Positions 12,363-48,990 of a stretch of 64,000 bases of DNA are shown here, one piece after another. Position 1 is the first letter of the stretch. Each line of letters starts with the position of its first letter. The stretch is from assembly GCA_963664295.1 (NCBI GenBank), contig OY760935.1, positions 832,001 to 896,000 of the forward strand. The letters are read 5' to 3'. The notes under the pieces were generated by a model. It had not been told where the DNA came from. It made no database searches and was given only the letters and a program-made list of their open reading frames with translations. Source of the DNA: Candidatus Altimarinota bacterium. Its GTDB lineage: Bacteria > Patescibacteriota > Gracilibacteria > CAIRYL01 > GCA-016699755. The position numbers and the translations under genes were made by a program.

Positions 12363-12465
12363 TTTATCGAGGGCTTGCGTCGCCCCCCTCAGTGGCAAAG
12401 CCACTGAGACTCCCCCCTCTCGCTCACTTCATTCGCCTTTGGCGAATTATGTTCGCTATTTTTTT
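12363..12465 (+). repeat. GC-rich hairpin block A1 downstream of tRNA-Met
   Basis: tttatcgagggcttgcgtcgc start; hairpins ctcagtggc-aaa-gccactgag (12388-12408) and attcgcc-ttt-ggcgaat (12431-12447); start and end motifs recur at ~13526-13605. Confidence 0.7.
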
Positions 12466-12517
12466 AGCAAAAATTATGACCCAGAGTGGAGCAAGCTAGA
12501 GTAAATATGGCACGATT
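12464..12517 (+). repeat. 54-bp direct repeat, copy 1 (block B)
   Basis: ttagcaaaaattatgacccagagtggagcaagctagagtaaatatggcacgatt; 50/54 identical to 13474-13527. Confidence 0.9.
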
Positions 12518-13473: not shown

Positions 13474-13527
13474 TTAGCAAAAATTACGATCCAGAACGGA
13501 GCAAGCTAGAGTAAATATGGCACGATT
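13474..13527 (+). repeat. 54-bp direct repeat, copy 2 (block B), running into a second copy of the block-A start
   Basis: ttagcaaaaattacgatccagaacggagcaagctagagtaaatatggcacgatt, then tatcgggggcttgcgtcgc. Confidence 0.9.
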
Positions 13528-29501: not shown

Positions 29502-30500
29502 TCAATCTAAAAATGGAACAATATCAGAAGCGATGTTTAGCATGTTATTAAGCCATTTATTAAGCTCATCAATATCTCTTTGATCAATTTCCACTTTACG
29601 AAAAAAATTGGTTTTCATTTTTTTCATCATTCTGCCTTTAAAAGCAAAAAGTGCAATATCGTCTTTAAATTGTAGAGTGAATGGCTTTTGCTCTCTTGCC
29701 ATTTGCAAAATGCGCACCTGAACAGAAGGAGAAAGAGTGCCTACTATGTCTAATTCCTTATCTGCCCTTTTGCCGTTATAGAAAAAAGCAAACTTGTCAT
29801 TAAACTCTGCTGACTCCATTTCAATTTCTTTTGAACCAAAAAAGTTTAAAAACTTCCGCCCTAATCCTTCTGGTTCAAGTCTAAAATCTGATTTTAATTT
29901 TTTGTTTAATTTAATGGCAACTATTGTGTTGTAATATGTTTTTTTACTTGATCTGCCTTTTGAATCTTTTGTTTTGGTGACATATGCAAACACGCCAGCA
30001 TAAAAAGACACTTTTTGTGTGCCCGAATCAAAATCTCCCCAAAACTCATCTTGCATATTTTGATCTTGATTTCCTTTGTAAAAAATTTCCGGATATTTTC
30101 TTTTAAACAATCTCCAACGACTAGGTTTTTCTGCTGGGGAATAAGTCCAGTTATTTGCCTTAGCAATCATCAGCTTTACAATATCTCTTTGGACTAAAAA
30201 TATTTTTCGTATATACCAAATCACAAACACAAAAGGCAAAACAACAACACCTGCGGCATTATCTAATTCTGCTAAAATTCGCAAAAAAGGCCCTAAGAAA
30301 AAAACAGAAATCCCCACTAAAAGAAAAACGGGTATAAAACACAAAAAAAGCTTAAAACGAATGCTGTTGGGATGCTTTTTATAAGCATTATATTTTTTAT
30401 TAAGCTCATTTAAATCTCTTTCAAATAAAGCTGGTCTTACATCTTCATCAATTGGATCCCATATTTTGCTTTTTTCTGCTTTTTTTACTGAATTTATCAT
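29502..30500 (-). CDS. Two-TM membrane protein, DUF3137-like; tandem paralog 1
   Basis: Two N-terminal TM segments, IEMESAEFNDKF..LSPSVQ; similar to the next ORF. Confidence 0.8.
   Translation of the reverse strand: MINSVKKAEKSKIWDPIDEDVRPALFERDLNELNKKYNAYKKHPNSIRFKLFLCFIPVFLLVGISVFFLGPFLRILAELDNAAGVVVLPFVFVIWYIRKIFLVQRDIVKLMIAKANNWTYSPAEKPSRWRLFKRKYPEIFYKGNQDQNMQDEFWGDFDSGTQKVSFYAGVFAYVTKTKDSKGRSSKKTYYNTIVAIKLNKKLKSDFRLEPEGLGRKFLNFFGSKEIEMESAEFNDKFAFFYNGKRADKELDIVGTLSPSVQVRILQMAREQKPFTLQFKDDIALFAFKGRMMKKMKTNFFRKVEIDQRDIDELNKWLNNMLNIASDIVPFLD
30353..30478. repeat. 126-bp exact repeat, copy 1 (within paralog 1)
   Basis: Identical to 31344-31469. Confidence 0.92.
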
Positions 30501-30501
30501 C

Positions 30502-31704
30502 TTAATCTAAAAATGGAATAATTTCTGAGGCTATATTTAACATGTCATCAAACCTTTTTTTAATCTTATTAACATCTCGTTGGTCAACTTTCACCTTACG
30601 TAAAAAATTCGTCTTCATATAATCACTTTCTGTAGGCTTAAACGCAAAAAGCACCATGTCTTCTTTAAATTGAATAACAGTTGGCTTTTGTCTTTTAATT
30701 ATTTGTATAATACGAACTTGCACAGATGGCGAAAGAGTCATAAAAATATCCAACTCCTTATCTGCCCTTTTGCCATTATAAAAAATATCAAATCTATCAC
30801 TAAGGAAAGCTGATTCTGTTTCAATTTCCTTTGGTCTTTCTTTGTAAAAATTATATCTTGATTCAAGACGAAAATCTGACCTTAATTTTTTATCAAGCTT
30901 AATGATAAATATTTCTTGATAAACCTTTTCTCGAGTTATTAATGATCGCACCATTGTTAAATCACTTACAAATGTAAAAGTACTCATATAAAAAAACCTT
31001 TTTTGTGTTCCATGCCTAAAAATTCCCCAAAATTCATCTTGTATACTTCGATTTTTAGTGCCTGCATTAAATATTTCTGGAAATTTTTTCTTAAATAATT
31101 TCCAGCGACTAAGCTTTTCTTTGGGTGAATATGTCCAATTGTTTTCCTTGGCTATCATTAATTTTGCAAGGTCTTTCTGTGTTGCAGAAATTCTTTGCTT
31201 ATAGCAAACAGATGGTATAAACGGTATTAATAACAAAAACAACCATCCTCTATCTTGTTTATCAAAAAAATTAAAATCATTATTTATTCCATAAAGAACC
31301 ATAGGAACAAGGGCTATCAAGGGAATAAGTGACAAGAAAAAAATAAAACGAATGCTGTTGGGATGCTTTTTATAAGCATTATATTTTTTATTAAGCTCAT
31401 TTAAATCTCTTTCAAATAAAGCTGGTCTTACATCTTCATCAATTGGATCCCATATTTTGCTTTTTTCTGAAGATATTTTTTGTTCTTTTTTGTATAAATC
31501 GGTTTTTTTTCGCAAAAAATCTTTAATTAAAGGAATAAAAGCAACAGGTAAATTTTCATTCATAAATTCTTCCATTATTGCTACTATTTCTTCTTTTTTT
31601 GCACCTGCAGAAATGGCGTCATTAAAAACTTCTTCAGGTTTTTTGCCTTTTTTTAATTCTTGAAGTGCAATTTCTTTAACTTGTTTTTTTAATTCTGGTT
31701 TCAT
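30502..31704 (-). CDS. Two-TM membrane protein, DUF3137-like; tandem paralog 2 with N-terminal extension
   Basis: Likely start MKPELKK at 31704; shares many motifs with the 29502..30500 product. Confidence 0.8.
   Translation of the reverse strand: MKPELKKQVKEIALQELKKGKKPEEVFNDAISAGAKKEEIVAIMEEFMNENLPVAFIPLIKDFLRKKTDLYKKEQKISSEKSKIWDPIDEDVRPALFERDLNELNKKYNAYKKHPNSIRFIFFLSLIPLIALVPMVLYGINNDFNFFDKQDRGWLFLLLIPFIPSVCYKQRISATQKDLAKLMIAKENNWTYSPKEKLSRWKLFKKKFPEIFNAGTKNRSIQDEFWGIFRHGTQKRFFYMSTFTFVSDLTMVRSLITREKVYQEIFIIKLDKKLRSDFRLESRYNFYKERPKEIETESAFLSDRFDIFYNGKRADKELDIFMTLSPSVQVRIIQIIKRQKPTVIQFKEDMVLFAFKPTESDYMKTNFLRKVKVDQRDVNKIKKRFDDMLNIASEIIPFLD
31344..31469. repeat. 126-bp exact repeat, copy 2 (within paralog 2)
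   Basis: Identical to 30353-30478. Confidence 0.92.
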
Positions 31705-31763
31705 TATCTTTACTTTACAAAAAAAGCCCAGGCCATACAATAAATAAGTATTTTTTAATAAAA

Positions 31764-32444
31764 ATGAATGAATTAATTTTCTTTTCTTTGCTAATTTTCC
31801 TGGCAAGCACGCTTTTAATTGCCTTGAAAGCTGGTAAAATTTATGTTTTTGCGGTTATTGCAATACTTTCTGTTTTATTGAATGTTTTTGTCTTAAAACC
31901 TTTTACAATTTTTGGCTTAACAACATATGGGGGCAATGTAATGTATGGTTGTATTTTTTTTGCTACCGACCTTCTAGCGGAGCATTATTCAAAAAAAGAA
32001 GCTTTGAAAGGTGTAAAAATTGGCTTCTTAAGCCTATTTCTTTATTTTGTTGTTTCCACTGTTTATGTGTATATCGCACCTGATCTTGCTACAGAAGGTG
32101 GTGCTGAGGTTCAAAATGCAATAGAAACTTTGTTCTTGCCTGCTGGCGGAATTGTTGTTGCTTCCATTACTGCTTTTTTAATTAGCAATACCAGCGATAT
32201 TTTTATTTACGACTTTTTGCACAAAAAAACAGGAGAAAAATTCCTTTGGATAAGAAATAATTTGTCTACTATTACATCACAATTTTTAGATACAATTATT
32301 TTCACTTCAATAGCAGTATTTTTTGGATTTTTTGATATTCAGGCATTTTGGGAAATTGTCCTTTTTGCCTATGTGTTTAAGGTCTTGGTGGCTGTATTAG
32401 ACACTCCGTTTTTATATTTATCAAAAATAATTATTAAAAAATGA
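31764..32444 (+). CDS. yhhQ: Queuosine precursor transporter (YhhQ/Vut_1)
   Basis: FATDLLAEHY, ASITAFLIS, LWIRNNLST..SQFLDT, DTPFLY; overlaps tgt start. Confidence 0.9.
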   Translation: MNELIFFSLLIFLASTLLIALKAGKIYVFAVIAILSVLLNVFVLKPFTIFGLTTYGGNVMYGCIFFATDLLAEHYSKKEALKGVKIGFLSLFLYFVVSTVYVYIAPDLATEGGAEVQNAIETLFLPAGGIVVASITAFLISNTSDIFIYDFLHKKTGEKFLWIRNNLSTITSQFLDTIIFTSIAVFFGFFDIQAFWEIVLFAYVFKVLVAVLDTPFLYLSKIIIKK

Positions 32445-36103: not shown

Positions 36104-37336
36104 ATGAAATCTTTAAAGCTATCAATTAGTTATTTTGCCCTGCTTGCAATCTGCCTGCTTGCATTAGTAGGAGTAGCAAAAGCTGATGATTCAGTTGATC
36201 TAAGTATCACAAAAACAATCAACAACTCAAATTCTTTCACTGCTCGTCAGGGAGAAATTGTTGAGATTGAGCTTACTTGTGCCAACAATGGCCCAAGCAC
36301 AGCAACAAGTATTACTGTTTCTGATAATTACAGTAATCGCTACAAAATTAAAAATGTGTCTAATCTGCCTGATGAATGTGAAGACACAGGTAAAACTGTT
36401 GAATGTAAGATTGATGAAATCGCAAGCGGAGATGATCTCACTTTAACTTATTCCGCAGAAGTAAGCATCACAGCTTCTTCTGGTAATAGTGAAAATTTCG
36501 CTAATATTTCTTCACCTTTAAATGATATCAATATTGACAACAATAGTGATTCAGCAATTTTGAGAGTTATTCAAAGCAGAGCTGTTAATCTAAGAATTGT
36601 TGACAATGTACAACTAAGCCTAACAAAAATGGCAGTAGGAACAAGTGGACAATGGGAAGAAGGAGACACTGCAGAAACTGCAATAGCTATTAGCTCAGAC
36701 GACACACAAGAAGTAGTATATCAAACACTTGTTTACAACGATGGCAGTCAAACAGCTTATAATGTTGAAATTAGTGATGTTTTTGCAGGTAAAAATGTAG
36801 AAATGACTAAGATTAACGATATTAGTGGTGCAACTTGGGATAGCAAAAAAGATGTTTTTGTTATTGAGCGCATAGAAGCAAAAGAAATAGTCGCAATTGT
36901 TTATAGCGCTACTCTACAACGCACAGGCAAAGGCAAAATGGAAGCTGTTAATGTTGCCACTGTTGAAAATGCAGAATACAAAAAAGGTCTTATGACAGAT
37001 CCTGCAAGAGTAAATATTGAGGGCATTGGCTCTACTGACCCTGCCTTTGTTGTTGGCGAAGCCAAAAAAGATGAAGAACCAAAAAAAGTTGTCACAACAA
37101 AAGCACCAACAACAAAAGTAGAAGTAAAAAATAACGCTGTATTAGTGGAAACAGATGATGTAATTGTAAGAGCAGATGACAATAGAGTAAGCGTTTCAGC
37201 AGAAACAGTTAGAGTAAATACTGCCACTGAAACACCTGATGAATTACCAGAAACAGGAAGTAATATGTTGCTAATTTTAATCGCATCATTGCTTGCAGGT
37301 TTTGGTATTCGCAAATTTGCCACCAGAAAAGCATAA
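36104..37336 (+). CDS. Surface protein with DUF11-like domain and LPETG sorting signal
   Basis: Signal peptide; VDLSITKT...N.GPS.A; C-terminal LPETG + hydrophobic helix + RKFATRKA. Confidence 0.85.
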   Translation: MKSLKLSISYFALLAICLLALVGVAKADDSVDLSITKTINNSNSFTARQGEIVEIELTCANNGPSTATSITVSDNYSNRYKIKNVSNLPDECEDTGKTVECKIDEIASGDDLTLTYSAEVSITASSGNSENFANISSPLNDINIDNNSDSAILRVIQSRAVNLRIVDNVQLSLTKMAVGTSGQWEEGDTAETAIAISSDDTQEVVYQTLVYNDGSQTAYNVEISDVFAGKNVEMTKINDISGATWDSKKDVFVIERIEAKEIVAIVYSATLQRTGKGKMEAVNVATVENAEYKKGLMTDPARVNIEGIGSTDPAFVVGEAKKDEEPKKVVTTKAPTTKVEVKNNAVLVETDDVIVRADDNRVSVSAETVRVNTATETPDELPETGSNMLLILIASLLAGFGIRKFATRKA

Positions 37337-37369
37337 AAATAGCTCGTAAGGATTCATTTTAATAACAAG

Positions 37370-37403
37370 AAAAGCATTAGCCTAATGGGTTGGTGCTTTT
37401 TTT
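37370..37403 (+). terminator. Intrinsic terminator
   Basis: aaaagcattagcc...ggttggtgctttt hairpin plus T-run. Confidence 0.7.
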
Positions 37404-37461
37404 GTGTAATTTTTTTAAATAAAAAAGTGCTAAAATAAGCTCATAAATATTAATTATATAA

Positions 37462-38202
37462 ATGAAAATATCTGTTTTGTGTGAAAATTCTGTTAGCGAT
37501 ATTGGCTTTCTTGGCGAATGGGGTTTGTCGCTATTTATCTCTGTTGGTGGCAAGAATATTCTTTTTGATACTGGCTATTCTGATGTTTTTGTACACAATG
37601 CAAAAGAGATGAAGGTTAATTTGGAAAAAACTGATTTTATTGTGCTTTCGCATTATCACAATGATCACACAAGGGGCTTGAGTTTTTACAAATTTGCAGA
37701 AAAAAAAGATATTATTTTTCATCCTGATTTAATTGGTAAATTGCCCAAAAAAGAAGCTAGAAATATTGAAAATAATTTTAATGTAATTAAATCAAAAGAA
37801 CCTTTGGAGTTTATTGAAAATGTTTTTTATTTAAGTGAAATACCTCGCAAAAACAATTTTGAAAAAGGTGTTTATAAAACCGATCCAATGAAAGAAGATT
37901 CAGCAATTGCAATCAAAACAAAAAAAGGTGCTGTGGTGATTAGTGGTTGTTCTCATGCGGGAATTTGCAATATTTGTGAATATGCTAAAAAAATCACAGG
38001 ACAAAGCCTATATGCTGTGATTGGTGGTTTTCATTTGTCTGAAAACAATGATGGGCTTATGCAAAAAACAATAGCTTATTTTAAACAAGAAAATCCTGAA
38101 CTTCTTTTTCCTATGCATTGCGTGGAGTTTCCTGCTTTGTGTGCTTTTTATTCTGCTTTTAATATTCAAAAACTTTCTGCAGGTGATTTTATTGAGATGT
38201 AA
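37462..38202 (+). CDS. MBL-fold metallo-hydrolase
   Basis: EWGLS, LFDTG, SHYHNDH, GCSHAG, GGFH, PMHC. Confidence 0.92.
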   Translation: MKISVLCENSVSDIGFLGEWGLSLFISVGGKNILFDTGYSDVFVHNAKEMKVNLEKTDFIVLSHYHNDHTRGLSFYKFAEKKDIIFHPDLIGKLPKKEARNIENNFNVIKSKEPLEFIENVFYLSEIPRKNNFEKGVYKTDPMKEDSAIAIKTKKGAVVISGCSHAGICNICEYAKKITGQSLYAVIGGFHLSENNDGLMQKTIAYFKQENPELLFPMHCVEFPALCAFYSAFNIQKLSAGDFIEM

Positions 38203-38214
38203 ATTATGAAAATA

Positions 38215-38889
38215 TTAAAAACATAAAAAATTACAAACAATTAATTTCGCCTTTTCAAAAAAATTGAAAAAAGATTCGCCATTATTAAGTGCAAAATAAA
38301 AAAATAATAAATTAAATACTGTTCCCAAGATATGTAGTGTAATATTTTTAATTTTATTTATTTTTGTTTCCTTTTTTAAGGGAAATAAAAAAACATATTC
38401 TAAAATTTTCATAACAGAATGTATGTCTGTAAACTTTAAAAAACTTAAAAAATTTACATTAGCAATTAATCTGCCAAAAAAAACATATATAAATGCTACC
38501 CAAAAATTAATTTCTAAAACCTGATTGAATAATAAAATAATAAACAAAAGAAAAACTACAAGAGATATTCTTTTAAGCTCTGTTATGTCTTTACTTATTT
38601 TTTCTTGATCTACTTCTGTTTTTTTATCGTAAAAAACAGACAACCTTAAATTTCCTAAATTTAGGATAACCTCTATCACCAAGGGTATTGCAAAAGAAGA
38701 TGTTGTTAATAAAATTGCAACTAAAAAATATGGTGGCAAAGTTATGGCAACATCAGTAATACTTAAAGTTATAACTGAAACAAGGACTGTAATAAATATT
38801 GTATTGCAAATTAAAATTAAACTATTTTTATGTTGCTCATATTCATAATTAATTTTTTCTTTTTTTTCTGTCTGACTTAAATCACTCAT
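38215..38889 (-). CDS. Hypothetical membrane protein
   Basis: Several hydrophobic segments; very AT-rich. Confidence 0.65.
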   Translation of the reverse strand: MSDLSQTEKKEKINYEYEQHKNSLILICNTIFITVLVSVITLSITDVAITLPPYFLVAILLTTSSFAIPLVIEVILNLGNLRLSVFYDKKTEVDQEKISKDITELKRISLVVFLLFIILLFNQVLEINFWVAFIYVFFGRLIANVNFLSFLKFTDIHSVMKILEYVFLFPLKKETKINKIKNITLHILGTVFNLLFFYFALNNGESFFNFFEKAKLIVCNFLCF

Positions 38890-39092
38890 TCAATATGATA
38901 AAATTTATTTAACTAAAAATTTATCTATTTTAATTATAGATCGTATGATTATAAGGCGCAAATTCATTTCGAACTAACTTAAAATTTTTCTGCTTTATAA
39001 AACTAGTTAAAACTCTTCGGGCACAATTAAAAAATATACAATAAGCAACCTGAGCATTGTAAACAACTACACACTCATCACAATAACAAAAA

Positions 39093-39147
39093 TTAAACAA
39101 AAGGATTATAAGCCCACTGTAACAAGGCTTGTCTTTGTTTTTTGCGA
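39093..39147. repeat. 55-bp exact direct repeat, copy 1 (duplicated 3' end of gene 46002..46562)
   Basis: ttaaacaaaaggattataagcccactgtaacaaggcttgtctttgttttttgcga, identical to 46002-46056. Confidence 0.95.
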
Positions 39148-39226
39148 TATAAGTATAAAAATATTTACGCACTTAATGTTGTGCACACTTCTTTTAATTT
39201 TTTAAGAATATTTTTTGGAGGATAAA

Positions 39227-42200
39227 TTAAACCACTAAGTCCAACACAGTAGCACATCTATCTACTTCACGAGTTGACATAATAAAGTCTATTATTTCAT
39301 CAGATTCCCCTGATTGCGACTGGCTAAATTTTAAACGAGCAATATTAGCAGCTTTTACAAATATTAAAATAGATAATAAGGCTGTCTCTGCTTTATTAAA
39401 AACGCTCAAATCTCCCTGAATTTCTTGTGTTTTTATTAATTTTGCTTCTTGTTGGTTGATTACAACATTCCATAAATCTTGGAATTCGCTTTGCGTTAAA
39501 TCTCTCAAAACATCAACATTACGATAAACCATCATAGCCTCTTCCGATGAATATAAATTACCTTCTCCCCCCCGATTGCCATCAATTGCTCCTATGACTT
39601 CCATTTTTAAAATTTCCTTTTCCTCCTGTGTTTCTGGCTTAGAAAGCATAATTAACTCAAGAATAGATTTAGCAATCATTTCTGCTTTACCAACATTACT
39701 TCCAACATTATTTAGACCCTCAAGATGAAGGATATCTTTTGCAATATCACGAACAGTTAGATTGCGATCATCTTTTTGCCTGCTTAAGTCCGCCATTGAC
39801 ATTTTTGCTGGTGGATAATCCACTGTCACATAATCCACTCTTCCTTTTGCATCAGGTGATAGCTGTCTAACGCCTTTATAACCTTTGCGCGCATTCATCG
39901 ACCCTGTGATTATTACACTTGGGTCTGCTTTTATTGTTTTTCCATCAGATGTAGTAATTGTGCGCCTGTGTGAAAGTAATGCATTAAAAAACTTCACCAT
40001 ATCTTCAGAAAGAGTGTTGTATTCATTAAAATACAAACATGCTCCTGGAGTCTCTAAAGCTTGGACAACTGCTGACGGAACTTTGATTGTTTTTCCGTCA
40101 AACTCAAAACTATAAGTTGCGTCACTAATTTCTGTCCATTTACTACAGTCAAAAGCAAAAAGTTCCCTATTTGTTTCTGCTAATAAAATATCAAGCAAAA
40201 AATCTTTTCCCGTTCCTGTGTCTCCTTCAAAAATTAACATACCTTTACCTGATTTTAATTGCATTTTCAAAAAAAGAGCTGCTTTTTTTAAATCATCTTT
40301 CACCCTATCTGTATAAACATAGTGCTCATTTAAAGTCGGCACATTTCTTTCTCTGTGACCATTAAATACTCCTAATTTTTTATAAACACTAGCAAGATAA
40401 ATTGCCTTTTTTTCTATGTCTGAAATTTTACTATCTTCTTCTTGCAACTCTTTTCTTAGGGCAATTAGTTCTTTTGGTGTTTTTTGTAGATATTTTTTAT
40501 ATGCTACTAATAATTTTGAATAATTTTCTTGGCTAACTTGATAAGCAAAATCTGACTCTAAAATATGCCTATCGCTAGGCGTAATTTTTCTTTTACCATT
40601 ATCCCTAAAAGAAAGAAAAACTTGGTCTCCTTGAATTTCTGGCTCTAGTTTCCAATTTACCCTTCTTGTTTTTACTCTAGCGTCTTCAAAATATAAATCA
40701 GGATCATTTTGCAAAAAAGAAAGCTCTCCTTTGAACTTAAGAAATTCTTGATTGACCTCTCTTTTGCGAGCTCTGATTCTATCCTTAAGATAAAGTTTTT
40801 TTCGCTCTTGCGCTCTTGGTGGCAATGCTTCAATGTCTGCAATTATTCTTTGATATGATTTTTTTCTTGAAAGCACACGCTCTTCCAAATTTTGAACTGA
40901 CTCAATCCCAGTAAGCATAAAATCAATTGCATCATTAATCTGTTGCATTCTTTTTTCCAGCTCTTGTCTTGCTTGAACTTTTTTTTGTGCTTCTTTTTGA
41001 CTAATTACACCTGCTCTTGATTTTAATGCTGACACAATATCAGCACGAATGTGAGCCTCTGATAACTCATGGTCTCTCGGAATTCTTCTGGCAACTGAGT
41101 CGCTTTTCAAAAGCTCTAAAAGGCCGTTATAATCTGGATCTTCCTCTTGAAAAGCTTGCAAATCTTCTGAAGTTTCAATAGTGCGAATTTTTGCCAAAAT
41201 TTTACCTTTTCTCTCTCCCAGGTCTTCAAAAAGTTGTTCATTGTCGACTTTTAAATAATCCTTCATTTTTTTGGCCAGCTTATCTTGCAACTTTCCTATT
41301 TCTTTATCTTTTTTAGGTTTTCTTTTGTCTAGTGAAACTTTTTTTAGTGTTTCAGCCATTTGAGTCAATTCACTTTGTGCGCTTGTTATTCCATCTAAAT
41401 TGCTAATATTGTCTAATTGTCCACGAATATCATCAACATTTTCGTATATTTTTGCGACTTGTATATCTTCTTCTTTTGATGCTATTGCTTGTGTTGCGAG
41501 CCCCACTAACTCATTTGCCAACTTAGTGCCCACCTTACTAACCATAGCAAGCCTTTCTTGCTCTAAGGCCATTCTTAGTTCTTGAATGTCTTCAGTAGAA
41601 GCAGCTTTATTGATTTGTTTTTGAAGTTTTTTAAGTATTTTTTGTTGAATTTTTTGGTTTTGTGGATCTAATTGGTCTAATTCTTCTGGACTTTGATCTC
41701 CGCCTTGCAATGTTGACTCTTGGCCAAATAAAGAGGCTACTTTTTTAGCTTCTTCCATTGAGGCTATTTTTGCTTTTGTTGCTTGTATTACTTTTTTTCT
41801 TTGTTCTCCACTGTCGCAAAAAATTTTGATCCTAGCCAATTTTGGATATTCATCATGTTGTGGAGTATAAGAAACCTGCAAGGTATCACTATTAATAAAC
41901 TTAAGATCGCACTCTTTCATATGTTGCCTTTCGCCCTCTTTCCAAGGCTCAAAATTTGGCATATCAACATTGCCTTTAATAAAAAGTCGTTTTTGACCAG
42001 AAGCTTCTTCTGTGAGAATTACTGTACGATTAACAGATAAAATTTTTTCACCACCAGACATGCCAAAATTGCATGGGCGAAGTCCATCATAAGGATTATC
42101 AAAATCAAAACGCATCCATGTGCCATCATTTTTAATAAGAAATATATTATTACGATTAAAGACATAAAGACTCTCTGGCTTATAATCATCCAAAGGAAAG

Positions 42201-42955
42201 TTAAAACCTTGCTCATTAACTTGCAAATAATGATCTCTCTCGTCTTGAGCAATAATGGCTTTCGTACCATCATAACCAACAGAAAAACTTGTGCCATCAG
42301 CTACATTTGAGACAGATTGCTTCATTCTTGCGCCATACATATACCACCTTTCGGATTCCTTTGCCATTGCATACACTTTTCCATTGTTGATTTGTATACT
42401 ATTCAGATCAACTGAATCCCACTCACAAACTCCTTCTTCTGTTAACAAAAGACCATCACGTATAACAGCCCCCACTGTACCATCAGAGCCAACGGTAATA
42501 CTTTCTGGCTTAAAGCCAGATTCTTTAGAAAAAACTTCATTATTTACTACTAATTTATCGTCTATCAATGCTGCTACTGTGCCATCAGCACCAACTTTAA
42601 TACTATCCGGATTAACTTCGCCCTTCCATCTTTTACCATTAACCCATAATTGCTTCTTCGATGGAGCATCTGCTTTTTGAAAATATGTTAATGGGTTTTT
42701 ATCAACTGCTGCTGCCACTGTGCCATCAGGGCTAAGGCGTATATTTTTTGCAAAACCGCCTCCTAAAAGTTTCCAAGTTTTATCACCAAGAGATATTTTT
42801 CCATAACCAACATCAACTGGCTTAATCCACTCAGTTACACAACTCTGCTGTTCCTCTAAACTTGATAATTGTTTTTGCAAATCTTCTAATGAAGGTTCTT
42901 TTTTGGAAAAATTAAAATGTTTACCCAATTTTTGCCCTAAATCATTTAATTTCAT
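39227..42955 (-). CDS. Large AAA+ ATPase (MoxR/CbbQ/dynein-related) with N-terminal beta-repeats and coiled coil
   Basis: Walker A GDTGTGKD, Walker B CLYFNEYN, SMN sensor I, STRE; repeated [PAS]DGTV[AG]A motifs. Confidence 0.88.
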   Translation of the reverse strand: MKLNDLGQKLGKHFNFSKKEPSLEDLQKQLSSLEEQQSCVTEWIKPVDVGYGKISLGDKTWKLLGGGFAKNIRLSPDGTVAAAVDKNPLTYFQKADAPSKKQLWVNGKRWKGEVNPDSIKVGADGTVAALIDDKLVVNNEVFSKESGFKPESITVGSDGTVGAVIRDGLLLTEEGVCEWDSVDLNSIQINNGKVYAMAKESERWYMYGARMKQSVSNVADGTSFSVGYDGTKAIIAQDERDHYLQVNEQGFNFPLDDYKPESLYVFNRNNIFLIKNDGTWMRFDFDNPYDGLRPCNFGMSGGEKILSVNRTVILTEEASGQKRLFIKGNVDMPNFEPWKEGERQHMKECDLKFINSDTLQVSYTPQHDEYPKLARIKIFCDSGEQRKKVIQATKAKIASMEEAKKVASLFGQESTLQGGDQSPEELDQLDPQNQKIQQKILKKLQKQINKAASTEDIQELRMALEQERLAMVSKVGTKLANELVGLATQAIASKEEDIQVAKIYENVDDIRGQLDNISNLDGITSAQSELTQMAETLKKVSLDKRKPKKDKEIGKLQDKLAKKMKDYLKVDNEQLFEDLGERKGKILAKIRTIETSEDLQAFQEEDPDYNGLLELLKSDSVARRIPRDHELSEAHIRADIVSALKSRAGVISQKEAQKKVQARQELEKRMQQINDAIDFMLTGIESVQNLEERVLSRKKSYQRIIADIEALPPRAQERKKLYLKDRIRARKREVNQEFLKFKGELSFLQNDPDLYFEDARVKTRRVNWKLEPEIQGDQVFLSFRDNGKRKITPSDRHILESDFAYQVSQENYSKLLVAYKKYLQKTPKELIALRKELQEEDSKISDIEKKAIYLASVYKKLGVFNGHRERNVPTLNEHYVYTDRVKDDLKKAALFLKMQLKSGKGMLIFEGDTGTGKDFLLDILLAETNRELFAFDCSKWTEISDATYSFEFDGKTIKVPSAVVQALETPGACLYFNEYNTLSEDMVKFFNALLSHRRTITTSDGKTIKADPSVIITGSMNARKGYKGVRQLSPDAKGRVDYVTVDYPPAKMSMADLSRQKDDRNLTVRDIAKDILHLEGLNNVGSNVGKAEMIAKSILELIMLSKPETQEEKEILKMEVIGAIDGNRGGEGNLYSSEEAMMVYRNVDVLRDLTQSEFQDLWNVVINQQEAKLIKTQEIQGDLSVFNKAETALLSILIFVKAANIARLKFSQSQSGESDEIIDFIMSTREVDRCATVLDLVV

Positions 42956-43025
42956 TTTGTTTTTTAAAATTTTTGTTTTTATTTTTTAAATATTATATAA
43001 TTATACAATATTAATATATAATTTT

Positions 43026-45893
43026 CTAGTCATTATTAATGCGTAATTTTCTAGTCATTTTATTAATTGATACTCTTAGTACTGTGAAAGCTTCTTTGAG
43101 CAACGAGCTATAATCATCAACAACGACTGTGCCTTTTCCTCTTTCTCCAAAATATTGCTCCATTGGTGTTATTTGATCTATTTCATGCTGACTTGCACCT
43201 TGCAACCCTCGCAAGAAAAAGCCCATTGCTAAATGTTTTGAACGAACTCCTTCGCCATTATATTCATTCCAGCCATTTATAAATCTTGTTAATTTATCAT
43301 CTTGCAACGCGCCAAAAGTTTCTCCATCTGAGATTGCAAAAAGCGCACTCATGTAATCTGGGTAATTTTTTTTATGCTCATTTAAATCATTGTTCATTTG
43401 CCATATTGCTTCTCCCATGTCAGTGCCCCCGCGACCAGTATAAACAACTTTATTGTTTCTGATTGAAGTTAACATTTTCATAAGCTCATATTTCATTCTT
43501 GGTTGTTCGCTAAACTGCTTTCCAAATTTCACCACCTTCTCTGTGTAGTCATCAAAAAGATAAATTGCTAAATCAACGTCAAATTTCTCTAGACCAAGAG
43601 CGAACAATAATAATGTTTTTAGGCTTTCTTTCAGCTTATCCCCACACATGGACATAGATATGTCTAAAAGAAAACCAACCATCATTCTTGCTTCGCTACT
43701 TTCTTTAATTTCACGAGATTTAATAACTTTACCTTGTAATCTTTTATCATATTTTCCCAGTGCTCTTACATCTAACTTGCTCCCTGATCTTCTGTTTATA
43801 TTTCCATATTGAATACTTGTTTTTTTGGGCAAAATTCTTTCCATCATTCGTGTAAATTTAACAATATCAGGTTTAACCTCCTGCAATAAAGTGTTGTATT
43901 CATCAAACAAAATTTCTTCTTCTATTGTTGGCTGTTCTTGGTCACCTTCTATAAAACCATTATTTTTCATGTTTTTAATCTTATTCGCTCTTTCTTTTTC
44001 TAATTGTTCTCTTCTTGCTTTTGCTTTTTCTTCAATTTCATCTTTGTGTTGCCATGGCATATCTTCATTTTTTAATAAATCATCTATTTGATCAGGTCGT
44101 TTTGCCTGGTCAATTTGATCTCTTAATTCTTCCTTTCTTCTTTCATCCACCTTTTCTTGTCTTTCAAATTCATCAATTTCTTCTTTTGCTTTTTCAGCAT
44201 CACTACTCATAGCTGTATTGAGATCGGGTCGATATTCGCCATTTTTGCCTTTTTTCATTTGCATAATACTTGGCATATCTTCATTAAGCTGCTCTGATTG
44301 CTCTCCATCTAACTCTGCACGAGCTTTTTCTGCAAGTTCTTTTTTTTCTTTATCTGATAATCCATCTATAGCCTCTTTTATCTTTTGTTTTAAGTCATCA
44401 GGAATCTGATTAATATCAATTGGCTTATTTTTCATTGCTTCCCCAATTTTTACCTGAGTGTCTTTTGATATATCTTCCAGCTCTTCTCCTTTGTCTTGTT
44501 TTTCTTCTTGATTTTCTCCACCTTGTTCACCAGAACCTGATTCTTTGTCTTGATTGCCTGCATCAGGTGTTTCATTTCCTAATTCTTTGTCTTGATCTGC
44601 ATGATTTTCATCTTCTTGTCCTACTGAACCCTTACTTGCTTCTCCTTCTTCATTTTGACCACCTTCTTGATTTTCACCCTCTTGTTCGTCTGAGTCTGAT
44701 TCTTGATCTTGATTGCTTTGTTCTCCTGAAGCTGGTTTTCGCTCTCCATCTTCTTGGCCCTCTGATCCTTCTTTTTGATCTGTCTTCTTATCTTCGTCCT
44801 GCGTTTGTTCTTCTTTTGCTCCTGACTGATCTTGATTTTCCTGACTCTGTCCACCTGGCGAAGATGATTCTCCTTCCTGACTTTCCTCTTGTTGCCCCGA
44901 CCGTGGCTGATTTTGTCTTTCTATTTCTTTTTTTATTTGATCTTGTAAGTCAGGTGGCAAATTATTAAATGGACTTGAGTTATCACCTTGACCACTTGCT
45001 TGTGCTTGATCCATAAGATTTTCTATTTCTTTATCTTGAACTGCTTGTTGTTCTAGCACTTTATATTCTGGCCATATTTGCTTAGTTAATATAATATTTG
45101 CTTCTTCTGCATTTGACACAAAATATTGTGCAACTGCTGGCTCTATTTTATTAAACACTTTTTGCACATCTGGTGATAATGACTTCCTTGCTTCTTCAAA
45201 CTCTTTCTCGCTCATCATTCCCAAAAAATCTTTTACCATTTTTAATTTTACAAGTAAGGCAATTTGTCTAGTAACTGGGTTTTTATGCCAACGTTCTACT
45301 GAGCCTATGTAATCTTCATGAAGCTTTATTTGCTTTCTTCTTTTAATTTCAGACTCACCAACTCCTAAATAAGTTATCCTACCATCTGCAAGTCCATTTG
45401 CAATCAATCCCATACTGGAAGGCAAATAACCTTCGTCCATAGCTTGGCGCATGTTTTGAAAACCATACTTATAGTTATCATGAACAGCATGCCAAGTTTC
45501 ATGATCAAGAGTTGCCATTAATACATCTTCTTCTGTTTCTGCTATTTGATCTTCCACATAAAAAATAGTCTGTGGCTTAAAAAGTGCATCATTAACATGA
45601 TCCAATGAATCAGTCTCTTTTGTTTCTAAAAACCTAACAAGTTCACCATGTAAGTATTCATCTTTTGATCCATCAAAAGAACATTTCCAAGCTTGCTCAG
45701 GATCATTTTTTGGCAGAGGCAAAACCTCAATTCCATATTGAGCATAGTATTTTGCAATAAAAGATATTGCCTTTTTTAAGCGATAAATTTCTTCTTTGGT
45801 TTTTGGTGCTTTTTTTTCGGGCGCTTGAGGCTTTTTTATGCTTTCCTGTTGTTTTTCCGGCAATGAATTAGGCTGATTAGAATATAATCCCAT
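43026..45893 (-). CDS. vWA protein with N-terminal HEXXH domain and acidic low-complexity linker
   Basis: DHETWH; E/Q/D/G-rich linker; MIDAS DISMS, GGTD, ISDG. Confidence 0.88.
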   Translation of the reverse strand: MGLYSNQPNSLPEKQQESIKKPQAPEKKAPKTKEEIYRLKKAISFIAKYYAQYGIEVLPLPKNDPEQAWKCSFDGSKDEYLHGELVRFLETKETDSLDHVNDALFKPQTIFYVEDQIAETEEDVLMATLDHETWHAVHDNYKYGFQNMRQAMDEGYLPSSMGLIANGLADGRITYLGVGESEIKRRKQIKLHEDYIGSVERWHKNPVTRQIALLVKLKMVKDFLGMMSEKEFEEARKSLSPDVQKVFNKIEPAVAQYFVSNAEEANIILTKQIWPEYKVLEQQAVQDKEIENLMDQAQASGQGDNSSPFNNLPPDLQDQIKKEIERQNQPRSGQQEESQEGESSSPGGQSQENQDQSGAKEEQTQDEDKKTDQKEGSEGQEDGERKPASGEQSNQDQESDSDEQEGENQEGGQNEEGEASKGSVGQEDENHADQDKELGNETPDAGNQDKESGSGEQGGENQEEKQDKGEELEDISKDTQVKIGEAMKNKPIDINQIPDDLKQKIKEAIDGLSDKEKKELAEKARAELDGEQSEQLNEDMPSIMQMKKGKNGEYRPDLNTAMSSDAEKAKEEIDEFERQEKVDERRKEELRDQIDQAKRPDQIDDLLKNEDMPWQHKDEIEEKAKARREQLEKERANKIKNMKNNGFIEGDQEQPTIEEEILFDEYNTLLQEVKPDIVKFTRMMERILPKKTSIQYGNINRRSGSKLDVRALGKYDKRLQGKVIKSREIKESSEARMMVGFLLDISMSMCGDKLKESLKTLLLFALGLEKFDVDLAIYLFDDYTEKVVKFGKQFSEQPRMKYELMKMLTSIRNNKVVYTGRGGTDMGEAIWQMNNDLNEHKKNYPDYMSALFAISDGETFGALQDDKLTRFINGWNEYNGEGVRSKHLAMGFFLRGLQGASQHEIDQITPMEQYFGERGKGTVVVDDYSSLLKEAFTVLRVSINKMTRKLRINND

Positions 45894-46001
45894 TTATTAT
45901 TTATTTTAAATCTTAATATTATAACATAAAAAATAAATAATAGCAAATCTATAAATTCACCAAATATAATAAAACAAATAGGTAAAATTTTAATCCAATT
46001 T

Positions 46002-46056
46002 TTAAACAAAAGGATTATAAGCCCACTGTAACAAGGCTTGTCTTTGTTTTTTGCGA
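46002..46056. repeat. 55-bp exact direct repeat, copy 2 (true 3' end of gene 46002..46562)
   Basis: Identical to 39093-39147; ends exactly at the stop codon. Confidence 0.95.
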
Positions 46057-46562
46057 CAATCTAAGTCGCCTGCAAAACAATGTTTTTTGACTTGTGCTTG
46101 GTGTCTTTTAAATGCTCGCCAGCGTTTTATTTGCCTTTGATCTAGTTCTTGGTCACGCCTGCCAAGATAATAACGGCAATACCACTGAAACCAACCTCTT
46201 ACGTCAGGATCATTTGGCAATATCCAGCCTTTTTCTCGCCAAATTTGTAATGACTGACGGGATTTTATCTTAAAAAAATTTTTGCTGACATCTGGTTTTT
46301 GAGAAGAAAGGCTTTTTATGGCTTGTTCATACCACTCTTTTGGTAATTCTCTTGTGCAATCATTGAGATATTTTCCCTCAAATACGCCCATTTTTAACAT
46401 TTCTGCTGGGCTTAACTCTGGTCTAAAATTTGGATCAAAAATTTTTCCCACTGGCGCACTCAAAATATAATGATAATTTTTTTGCATTAAATCATTAGCA
46501 ACAATCTTGTCACCGATTTTGTAGTCTTTTTGGCTTTTTGCTTTGGCAAGATTAATTGTCAT
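46002..46562 (-). CDS. Conserved hypothetical protein (186 aa)
   Basis: P.EML.MGVFEGKY, W..KGWI...D.RGWFQWYCRYYLGRR, RQALLQWAY motifs. Confidence 0.85.
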   Translation of the reverse strand: MTINLAKAKSQKDYKIGDKIVANDLMQKNYHYILSAPVGKIFDPNFRPELSPAEMLKMGVFEGKYLNDCTRELPKEWYEQAIKSLSSQKPDVSKNFFKIKSRQSLQIWREKGWILPNDPDVRGWFQWYCRYYLGRRDQELDQRQIKRWRAFKRHQAQVKKHCFAGDLDCRKKQRQALLQWAYNPFV

Positions 46563-46680
46563 TTTGCTTATTAGGCTAATTTTATTATATATTTTTTTTA
46601 ATTTATTTAAACCTGTTCAATAAACCTTGTTTAAGGTAAAATTTTCAAGCACAATTTATACATAATTATTTTACCTAAAT

Positions 46681-48990
46681 ATGGCAGAACAAAGCTTAGA
46701 CATGAGCACAATGCAAGATGCTGATATTGCTAAATTTCTCAAAGATAACCAAATTGGTCTTACTGTTTCTGAGGCTCGTAAAATTCAAGATGAAATCTTA
46801 AATCGCCCACCTACTATGACCGAATTGGTTGTTTGGGGTATTCAGGGATCTGAACATTCTAGTTATAAATCGAGTAAAAAATATTTAAAAAATCTGCTTA
46901 CTGAAGGCGAAAATGTAATTCTTGGCCCTTCGGAGGATAGCGGTATTATTAAATTTTGTGAGGCTGGCGGAAAAACTTTTGGACTTGTTTTGTCGCATGA
47001 AAGTCATAATCACCCTTCGCAAGTTGTGCCTTATGAAGGTGCGGCTACTGGCGTTGGTGGTATTGTGCGTGATATTGCTTGTATGGGTGCTAAGGTGATT
47101 GGCTGTGCGGACATGCTTCGCTTTGGTGATATAAATCGCAATGAAACTAAGCTTATTGCTAGTGGTGTAATTGAGGGAATTGCTGGTTATGGCAATCCTC
47201 TTGGTGTTCCTAATCTTGGTGGTGATTGTTTTTTTCATTCTAGTTTTAATGAAAATTGTCTTGTTAATGTTGGCTCTGTGGGCTTAATTGAGGCTGATAA
47301 AATTCTTCATTCTTATGTGCCTGCTGATGCCAAAAATGAGGAATATGAATTTATTTTAGTTGGTAAACCAACTGATCGTAGTGGTTTTGGTGGTGCTAGT
47401 TTTGCTTCTGCTGTGCTTGACGAAAAAGACAAAGAACAAAACAAAGGTGCTGTTCAAGAGCCTAATCCTTTTCTTGAGCGTCATCTTTTGGCTAGTTTTT
47501 ATGATTTATTTAAAATTCTTGATCAAGAAAATTTACTTCCAAAAATAGGATTTAAAGACCTTGGCGCTGGTGGGGTGCTTTGCGCTACTGTTGAGCTAGC
47601 GGAAAGCGCTGGTTTTGGCGCAGAGGTTTTTGTGGAAAATATTCATGTAGCAGAAGAAAACCTTCCTCCTGCGGTTGTGCTTTGCTCAGAAACACAAGAG
47701 AGATTTTGTTTTGCTGTACCAAAAACTTTAACTACTTTGTTTTTGGATCATTTTAATAAAAAATGGGCTTTGCCTGATGTTTCTGCTGGTGCAATGGCGA
47801 GTGTTGTTGGTCATGTACGTCAAGATGGCATTTATCGAGCTACTCTTAATGGTGAAGTTGTTTGCAATGCCCCTGCTAGTAGTATTACTGAAGGACTTAC
47901 TGTTGATCGCCCATTCCAAAAACCTACCAAAGAATTGAAAGAACTTGTGATTGATTTTTCTATAATTGATTATGATCAACTTTTAAAAGAGTTGTTGGGC
48001 AGAGAAAATCTTTGTTCTTTGGAGAGAATTTATGAAAATTACGACCAAACTGTGCAGGGGAATGCAGTTTTGGAGCGTTGGCAAGCTGAAGCTAGTGTTT
48101 GTGCTCCGCTTCGAGACAGAGAAGATTTAACAGAAATAGAAAAGAAAAATGCTTTTGCTGTAGGCATTGGTGGCAATGCGCTTATTGGTGAAATTTCTCC
48201 TTATTGGCAAGGTGTTTATGCTGTGCTAAATGCTATTCAAAAATCTGCATCAGTTGGAGCAAAAACAATTGGTCTTACTGATTGTCTTTGTTATGGCAGT
48301 CCGGAAGTTCCAGAAGAAATGTGGGAATTTGTTGAGGGCATTCGCGGTGTTAGTGAAACATCCAAGGAATTTAATACGCCTTTTGTAAGTGGCAATGTTT
48401 CTCTTTATAATCGGGGAATGAAAGGCTCAGTTAATCCTTGTGTCACTATTTGTGCTTTTGCAACAATGGACAATCAAGACAATGCCAAAAAAAATAGCTT
48501 TCAAGAAGAAGGTAATGCGATTTATATTATTGGAGAAAGGCCTGTTGAGCTTGGCGGAAGTGAATTTACTGCTCATCTGGAACAACTTGGCAACAAAACT
48601 CCTGCTTTAAATTTTGAACAAGCTCAAAAAATTACTAATTTTGTTATTGAGGCTAATCCTATTATAAAAAGCTCATCTGTTATTAAAGAGGGTGGTCTTT
48701 TGGTTAATCTTGCAACAATGGCAATCAGGGCAAAAAAAGGTTTTGATGTCGATTTATCTGAATTTATACCTGAACAATTATTCTCTGAATTTAATGGATT
48801 TATTGTTGAAATTGCCAATACTGAAGAATTTGAAAATCTTGCTCAAAAAAAAGGCGTAAAAGTGCAAAAAATCGGCACAATCCAAGGAGATAAAATGCAG
48901 GGAAAAATGCCTTTAGAAAAAGAATTAAATCTTGATCTAAAAGAGGCAGAAAAAATCTGGAAAAACGCACTTAGAAAAAAATTAGGCTAA
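46681..48990 (+). CDS. purL: Phosphoribosylformylglycinamidine synthase subunit PurL
   Basis: SEHSSYKSS, ESHNHPS, GAATGVGG, DLGAGG, SETQER, VSGNVSLYN. Confidence 0.96.
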   Translation: MAEQSLDMSTMQDADIAKFLKDNQIGLTVSEARKIQDEILNRPPTMTELVVWGIQGSEHSSYKSSKKYLKNLLTEGENVILGPSEDSGIIKFCEAGGKTFGLVLSHESHNHPSQVVPYEGAATGVGGIVRDIACMGAKVIGCADMLRFGDINRNETKLIASGVIEGIAGYGNPLGVPNLGGDCFFHSSFNENCLVNVGSVGLIEADKILHSYVPADAKNEEYEFILVGKPTDRSGFGGASFASAVLDEKDKEQNKGAVQEPNPFLERHLLASFYDLFKILDQENLLPKIGFKDLGAGGVLCATVELAESAGFGAEVFVENIHVAEENLPPAVVLCSETQERFCFAVPKTLTTLFLDHFNKKWALPDVSAGAMASVVGHVRQDGIYRATLNGEVVCNAPASSITEGLTVDRPFQKPTKELKELVIDFSIIDYDQLLKELLGRENLCSLERIYENYDQTVQGNAVLERWQAEASVCAPLRDREDLTEIEKKNAFAVGIGGNALIGEISPYWQGVYAVLNAIQKSASVGAKTIGLTDCLCYGSPEVPEEMWEFVEGIRGVSETSKEFNTPFVSGNVSLYNRGMKGSVNPCVTICAFATMDNQDNAKKNSFQEEGNAIYIIGERPVELGGSEFTAHLEQLGNKTPALNFEQAQKITNFVIEANPIIKSSSVIKEGGLLVNLATMAIRAKKGFDVDLSEFIPEQLFSEFNGFIVEIANTEEFENLAQKKGVKVQKIGTIQGDKMQGKMPLEKELNLDLKEAEKIWKNALRKKLG

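Follow-up and report, generated by a model that had tools for sequence, protein, structure and literature searches.

The window, which is the whole stretch of 64,000 nucleotides that was analysed, contains an islet bounded by two direct copies of the 3' end of a protein gene, referred to as the target gene. The features of the locus are given in Table 1. Realignment confirmed the claim of an earlier sequence-only reading that the two copies, 6909 bp apart, form a perfect duplication ending at the TAA (55 of 55 bases identical). The 55-mer comprises 17 sense codons, the stop codon and one further base of the 186-aa gene. The match is limited by the TAA of this gene at one end and by the 55th base at the other, and the flanks diverge right after the TAA. 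The copy search proposed in that reading was carried out over the entire single-contig genome (1,215,430 bp) and detected exactly two full copies, the next match being 17 nt long (E 0.63). As also claimed, the vWA and AAA+ genes are the only two large genes between the repeats, both lie on the minus strand, and no recombinase is present within the islet.

Table 1. Features of the islet and its flanks, with positions in the window
Feature	Position	Strand	Remarks
224-aa low-GC membrane-protein gene	38215..38889	-	ORF; no family match; just outside the left repeat copy
Left repeat copy	39093..39147	-	Displaced target-gene 3' end, promoterless
Inner segment, 79 bp	39148..39226	-	Likely decayed AAA 3' end plus terminator-like hairpin (39187-39166)
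MoxR-type AAA+ ATPase, 1242 aa	39227..42955	-	AAA_5 at residues 907-1036, E 1.3e-13; phrog_249
vWA protein, 955 aa, CobT-like	43026..45893	-	VWA_2 at residues 741-857, E 7e-4, below the curated cut-off
Spacer, 108 bp	45894..46001	-	Precedes the vWA gene; sigma-70-like matches, no more than in shuffles
Right repeat copy	46002..46056	-	Functional 3' end of the target gene
Target gene, 186 aa	46002..46562	-	ORF; conserved family of unassigned function

An origin of the duplication in the assembly itself was considered, as the arrangement is carried by one genome only and all 7 window proteins tested form singleton clusters. Metagenome contigs were compared with window 36500-42950, which covers the left-junction side. 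In each of three runs (X2-X4) from one sample, which is probably the source of the genome and hence not independent of the assembly, the repeat was present as a separate contig of 55 nt, and the contigs branched exactly at both ends of the 55-mer. The depth of this contig was 30.7, 22.5, and 20.4, whereas the 10,981-nt contig next to it reached 17, 16, and 10.2, giving ratios of 1.8, 1.4, and 2.0. A repeat contig at 1.4-2.0 times the depth of its neighbor argues strongly against misassembly, which we regard as extremely improbable, and the duplication thus withstood the misassembly test that the sequence-only reading had named.

The vWA and AAA genes are surrounded by spacers of 108, 70, and 79 bases. 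Seven sigma-70-like matches were found over 45800-46750, where 4.3 ± 1.9 were expected. The vWA protein consists of an N-terminal domain, in which an HExxH-like motif was read by eye, a long acidic linker, and a C-terminal vWA domain. Its nearest homologues clear the Pfam cut-offs for VWA/VWA_2, and the Atlas neighbors of one homologue (P0153) are CobT_C/VWA clusters, many of them viral. The AAA_5 ATPase adjoins a vWA protein, which is likewise the arrangement of the MoxR AAA+/vWA pairs (RavA-ViaA, CoxD-CoxE, CobS/CobT-like), where an AAA_5 ATPase stands beside a charged-linker vWA protein according to PMC7159879. The islet differs from these pairs in that its ATPase is truncated and carries ~800 extra N-terminal residues without a family match, and in that it has no third gene (VMAP, iSTAND, FtsH, beta-propeller). 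With two genes only, it lacks the third operon component of a MoxR-vWA ternary conflict system, and no PADLOC match was obtained. By analogy, an intact pair would act as a MoxR/vWA (CobS/CobT-like) remodelling chaperone that captures a protein substrate. In many relatives the vWA partner has a transglutaminase-like domain in place of the acidic linker (L153:11096-14218, L160:11077-14160, L165:11193-14546), and the order AAA-vWA is commoner than vWA-AAA.

At E ≤ 0.001 the AAA family has 531 representatives. Among 401 class genomes the AAA was detected in 27, this genome included, and in a phylum sample it was detected in 4 of 401 genomes; an initial search of genome contigs that used only the AAA had given no match. 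The pair was detected in none of the 7 family genomes and none of the 12 order genomes searched, which indicates that it was gained at some point. The AAA/vWA pair is accessory within the class, and the proposal of an accessory insertion with the displaced target 3' end at its far border was borne out. The codon usage of the cargo is host-like (43rd and 36th percentile among 829 genes), as is its GC3, which fits a related donor.

The target protein matched no Pfam, NCBIfam, PHROG, or PADLOC family. Its family is widespread and highly conserved, with 44 invariant columns in 77 sequences, and is rich in Trp, Arg, and Cys. The AlphaFold model has a pLDDT of 91 and the single-sequence fold one of 41; Foldseek returned no PDB match at E ≤ 0.001 and one unnamed viral structure (E 1.4e-7). 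Homologues of the target occur in 96 of 401 class genomes, and a second C-terminal match was found only in the present genome. To these were added loci from metagenomes, so that 100 target loci, all of distant relatives, were compared: 20 loci from the class, which have 10-18 kb of downstream sequence, and 80 from metagenomes, 26 of which have at least 5 kb. None of the 100 repeats the tail, and the longest exact match was 16 nt. This result speaks against the view of the 186-aa gene as a target of site-specific integration and against a reuse of its 3' end in other genomes, and the same cargo family uses the tails of ftsA, trmD, and mraY elsewhere (see below). Pfam searches of 103 downstream ORFs from 84 of the 100 loci gave one integrase and one transposase domain. 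The integrase, a tyrosine integrase, lies directly behind a target homologue at an unrelated locus of a high-GC bacterium (L082:4890-6915), where no tail repeat occurs within 5.3 kb. No 20-nt piece of the repeat was found in viral contigs. The 224-aa gene on the other flank has a GC3 of 0.147, compared with a genome mean of 0.221, and possibly stood directly behind the target gene before the insertion. The genome set holds no genome of the same genus; the metagenome contigs gave no exact match of 29 nt, and the best target homologues in them were 52-63% identical.

To see the cargo in other surroundings, 72 AAA loci were taken, namely 45 of 52 (7 weak non-family matches were omitted) and 27 more. 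Removal of 5 duplicates and of 2 loci with a mis-called genetic code left 65, of which 44 were testable, in that they contained both genes with 500 bp of flanking sequence at either side. The pair was spanned by a duplication of the tail of the upstream gene in 3 of the 44 testable loci, and 41 were without one. The duplicated tails are those of ftsA (L153, 28 bp, 89% identity), trmD (L160, 87 bp, 90%), and mraY (L168, 73 bp, 96%, with a third copy further on). The AAA/vWA cargo family therefore sits at four different gene tails, including that of the 186-aa gene. Of ~207 slots of 7 kb in the controls, 1 had a spanning event (Fisher p 0.018); the slots are a construct of our own and the loci are not independent. 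None of the three loci contains a tyrosine recombinase, and one of the 72 AAA loci does, 2.3 kb outside the pair. The upstream neighbors of the pair belong to 45 gene families in 47 loci, and over such distances gene order is in any case little conserved. The copy at the trmD locus is identical for ~52 bases and then continues with a different, complete TrmD end. Such a copy, half identical and half an alternative end, points to the meeting of two working alleles, and the attP of an integrase would also give it. A 45-bp leader duplication was observed at a further locus (L155) and a 125-bp repeat near tRNAs at another (L144).

The ATPase of the islet stops 13 residues past the sensor-II arginine, whereas the corresponding tail measures 42-72 residues in all 106 homologues with the motif (150 homologues were compared, 139 of which aligned at the sensor-II arginine column). 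The AAA+ module is thus incomplete in its C-terminal helical part, and the islet ATPase has lost its last helices. The family profile continues beyond the stop codon, through three stops, to window 39131, and the ten codons past the stop scored best in the register of the conserved tail motif of the family, a score equalled by 62 of 901 controls. When the missing tail was sought elsewhere in the genome, no match was obtained (best E 2.6). The cassette appears to be decaying, and the present AAA/vWA copy is probably impaired.

A relative of the host was detected in X1, a seawater metagenome run from a different study, which covers window 36500-38180 at 95-98% identity. One record of this run, a single 375-nt contig with a depth of 2.9, shows in order the target gene's end, its stop codon, 40 other bases, window 39227-39137, and 95 unrelated bases; the alignment was made at 85% likeness, a setting prone to false joints, and rests on this one low-depth contig. 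At the target end, 26 of the 30 bases displayed past the aligned part agree with window 46047-46076. The cargo is missing, and the 91-base inner piece, which includes 11 bases of the left repeat, is present with 3 mismatches, the positions of which are not displayed. The match at the joint is 11 bases, or up to 17 with one extra, and may be a remnant of the repeat; 11-mer matches arise by chance at a rate of 77 in 5710. The 30 bases beyond the inner segment in X1 are absent from the present genome. The AAA gene and the 224-aa gene are both without cover in X1, and this hole alone proves nothing. The tail motif in X1 lies 32 residues from the arginine, compared with 33 in the three closest homologues (counted by eye). 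The 11 extra codons of X1 were not significant against a profile of 52 sequences, as 41% of stop-free random pieces scored as high, and reached 0.9% only against the three closest homologues, which were chosen afterwards. We had at first read X1 as a cargo-free ancestor, and this reading was dropped once the inner segment was seen to resemble the tail of the AAA itself, a modest test. It is likelier that the X1 lineage had the islet and lost its cargo by an imprecise deletion between short matches, in which case the present genome would have lost 42 bases after the premature AAA stop. The less likely alternative takes X1 for the cargo-free ancestor, whose match of 11 bases would have given rise to the joint. 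Neither a clean empty site nor an excised circle was found among the contigs, which cannot reveal a rare one. Thus the search for an empty site advised in the sequence-only reading gave a joint of the target gene with the inner 91 bases of the islet, an imprecise one, rather than a clean empty site.

The host, some of whose kin within the class read TGA as sense, probably belongs to the Patescibacteria, class Gracilibacteria. It carries recA, comEC, and dprA. Its sole tyrosine recombinase is a 306-aa XerC/D-like chromosomal protein at 1158 kb, 280 kb from the islet, and a search of the genome for PF00239, PF07508, PF00078, and PF01797 (resolvase, large serine recombinase, reverse transcriptase, and Y1 transposase) gave no match; the genome-wide recombinase search that had been recommended thus yielded one XerC/D-like protein and no serine recombinase. 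A diversity-generating retroelement does not fit, with no RVT_1 in the genome and with identical repeats that are consequently free of adenine-specific differences. The GC skew has its maximum at 330 kb and its minimum at 982 kb. The islet, at 871-878 kb, is ~105 kb from the minimum and thus far from the skew terminus, which indicates that it is not a dif site. Short tandem duplications of gene 5' ends (G000:C1:360772-361200 and 507733-508525, with periods of 154 bp and 120 bp) as well as numerous amplified fragments of tRNAs show that the genome is prone to local duplication. Palindromic REP-like intergenic repeats occur in at least 20 copies, often in tandem (G000:C1 143100-143600, 233400-234200, 265200-269600, 709500-715500), and no Y1/RAYT transposase accompanies them in the genome. 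Within the window, a 54-nt repeat (12464-12517 and 13474-13527, 93% identity) flanks a single peroxiredoxin-like gene just after a tRNA-Met, and its unit recurs near 97.6 kb and 1133 kb of the genome. Two tandem membrane-protein paralogues (window 29502-31806) share a 149-nt stretch with 95% identity, compared with ~70% elsewhere, which suggests recent gene conversion.

We favor, with a probability of roughly 0.55, a capture of the cargo by RecA and competence through a long anchor of homology on one side and a short joint on the other, by which the tail of the resident gene was displaced. The donor would have been a close relative whose DNA already carried the pair behind the 186-aa gene. This DNA would have recombined by RecA via the 186-aa gene and the DNA upstream of it, and its far end would have joined the resident gene ~55 bases before the stop codon via a short match of 11-17 bases. 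The far joint may have been a linear homology-facilitated illegitimate event (HFIR) or the entry of a circle by one crossover, which would give the same product. As a result, the 186-aa gene would be kept whole and the resident tail left behind the cargo, and the identity would end at the TAA because the strains differ just beyond the stop codon. Later the cassette would have decayed, with truncation of the ATPase here and a likely imprecise deletion of the cargo in a relative. The presence of recA, comEC, and dprA, the lack of a dedicated integrase, and the scattered sites together favor recombination by the host. Against capture, neither a clean empty site nor a donor was seen among the contigs and genomes searched. 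Of the two routes that the sequence-only reading had allowed, homologous recombination is therefore the one we prefer, whereas for mobilization in trans no candidate integrase other than the XerC/D-like protein was found.

A CIME-like remnant, that is, a site-specific element in the gene 3' end that lost its integrase or received it in trans, with the repeats as attL and attR, is a possible but doubtful alternative. The anatomy of the islet is the classical one, in that the direct repeats duplicate the 3' end of the target gene; in PMC5704250, CIMEs and tandem accretion at 3' gene ends likewise place integrase-less cargo between direct repeats of a gene 3' end, and the stacked copies at the mraY locus resemble such accretion (PMC5704250). 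An attP bearing a functional tail is compatible with the synonymous differences of the other copies, as is capture, and these differences do not separate the two; an integrase stands right behind a target homologue in 1 of the 84 loci scanned. Unlike with CIMEs, however, no related integrase-bearing element was found at this target, the same cargo occurs behind unrelated genes, and no cognate integrase was found in the element, in the genome, or in a related element at the site. The complete genome offers no candidate except the XerC/D-like protein, no integrase remnant lies within the islet, and a tyrosine recombinase accompanies just the one AAA locus mentioned above. None of the 100 target loci has a tail repeat, no viral contig carries a 20-nt piece of the repeat, the position is not that of a dif site, and one cargo family would require four different target specificities.

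A local rearrangement that brought in no new DNA is less probable again. It would consist of a microhomology-mediated tandem duplication of target, vWA, and AAA, whose second copy was deleted down to 55 bases. The many local tandem duplications in the genome, including those of tRNA tails, the perfect identity of the repeats, and the host-like codon usage all fit it. It nevertheless requires a second deletion that ends exactly at the stop codon, and it predicts decay at all codon positions, whereas the copies in relatives differ mainly at the third position and one reads as a different allele. The absence of the pair from all family and order genomes searched likewise points to a gain. An active, recently acquired, excisable module, as the sequence-only reading had proposed, is improbable. 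The repeats are perfectly identical, and RecA can loop out DNA between such repeats at low frequency, so that the cargo might be released in this way. The AAA is truncated, however, and X1 appears to have lost its cargo imprecisely; the inner segment is shared with a relative at 95-98% identity, so that the cargo is probably older than that split, and at 2-3% divergence a perfect identity of 55 bp is still expected 19-33% of the time.

The components of the favored capture are known. PMC3240628 gives HFIR joints of 3-10 bp, usually with a deletion, cites S. pneumoniae, A. baylyi, and P. stutzeri for the original descriptions, and reports for E. coli that recircularised DNA, on entering by a single crossover, left 109-950 bp of a gene end in duplicate. 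With HFIR and single-crossover insertion-duplication as described there, the islet shares the absence of an integrase, the presence of RecA and competence genes, and, in the proposed course of events, a long homologous side combined with a short match (PMC3240628). It differs in its duplication of 55 bp and in a candidate short match of 11-17 bp, whereas HFIR normally deletes and has 3-10 bp joints (PMC3240628). Natural competence has been shown in Saccharibacteria, with comEC-dependent transformation (PMC10633639), and frequent exchange is reported for Patescibacteria (PMC12455944). In the literature searched, which was largely open-access, we found no description of HFIR for Patescibacteria and no paper on gene-tail duplications around integrase-free cargo in this group. 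The present work adds the occurrence of a single cargo family at four different gene tails and an imprecise loss in a relative. The cag island of Helicobacter pylori, a naturally competent host, is also integrase-less; it occupies the 3' end of glr and is accompanied by a short direct repeat derived from a protein gene's end. It has one fixed site and a large conserved cargo, whereas the islet family has many sites and a two-gene cargo.

We tentatively suggest that Patescibacteria spread cassettes without an integrase, the tail copy of the upstream gene acting as a portable second homology arm. If so, cargo backed by a tail copy could enter behind that gene in any strain by natural transformation, whatever lies downstream; each transfer would renew the repeat from the allele of the recipient, and any gene end could serve as an attachment site. 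Such a route would explain the stacked tails at mraY and the half-identical, half-allelic copy at trmD. The streamlined Patescibacteria have few mobile elements, yet exchange many genes. If tail duplications were a routine scar of competence-driven capture, they would provide a searchable marker of recent acquisitions, and the mechanism could be tested in transformable Saccharibacteria. Taken singly, the locus is of modest weight, an accessory cassette that appears to be decaying. It is also a warning that an attL/attR-like repeat is no proof of an integrase.

Gene-tail duplications in general were counted in a uniform scan, which gave 8 in 1.02 Mb of AAA neighborhoods, 5 in 1.45 Mb of controls (73 stretches), 2 in 1.22 Mb of the present genome (the second likely due to chance), and 2 in 0.65 Mb of mixed-bacteria loci. 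An enrichment in Patescibacteria is not evident from these counts. In the 8 events of the AAA neighborhoods the mismatches were distributed over the codon positions as 4/3/20, so that 20 of 27 were at the third position, and 18 codons differed synonymously and 7 non-synonymously. The third-position bias gave p 2e-5 against one third, p 0.003-0.01 against a stricter null in which synonymous drift of the working gene is allowed, and p 0.03-0.07 without the ftsZ case. The 5 control events showed no such bias (7/6/6), and the pooled events were not significant (p 0.10-0.23). Co-orientation of the cargo (13 of 15, compared with a background of 66%) was not significant (p 0.07).

More tail duplications around cargo of one or two genes were observed at L145:14123-14848, L151:14482-15316, L153:18115-19929, L232:8027-8947, L233:6833-7973, L032:5725-6614, and L200:1842-2431. 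Their upstream genes are metK, a VanW-like gene, ftsZ, and others, and two of the cargoes look toxin-antitoxin-like by eye. A mirror-image case was found at L164:14385-15246, where a perfect 37-bp copy of the 5' end of the adenylate kinase gene (adk) lies 825 bp upstream, directly behind a vWA gene; start codons were uncurated for such 5'-end duplications.
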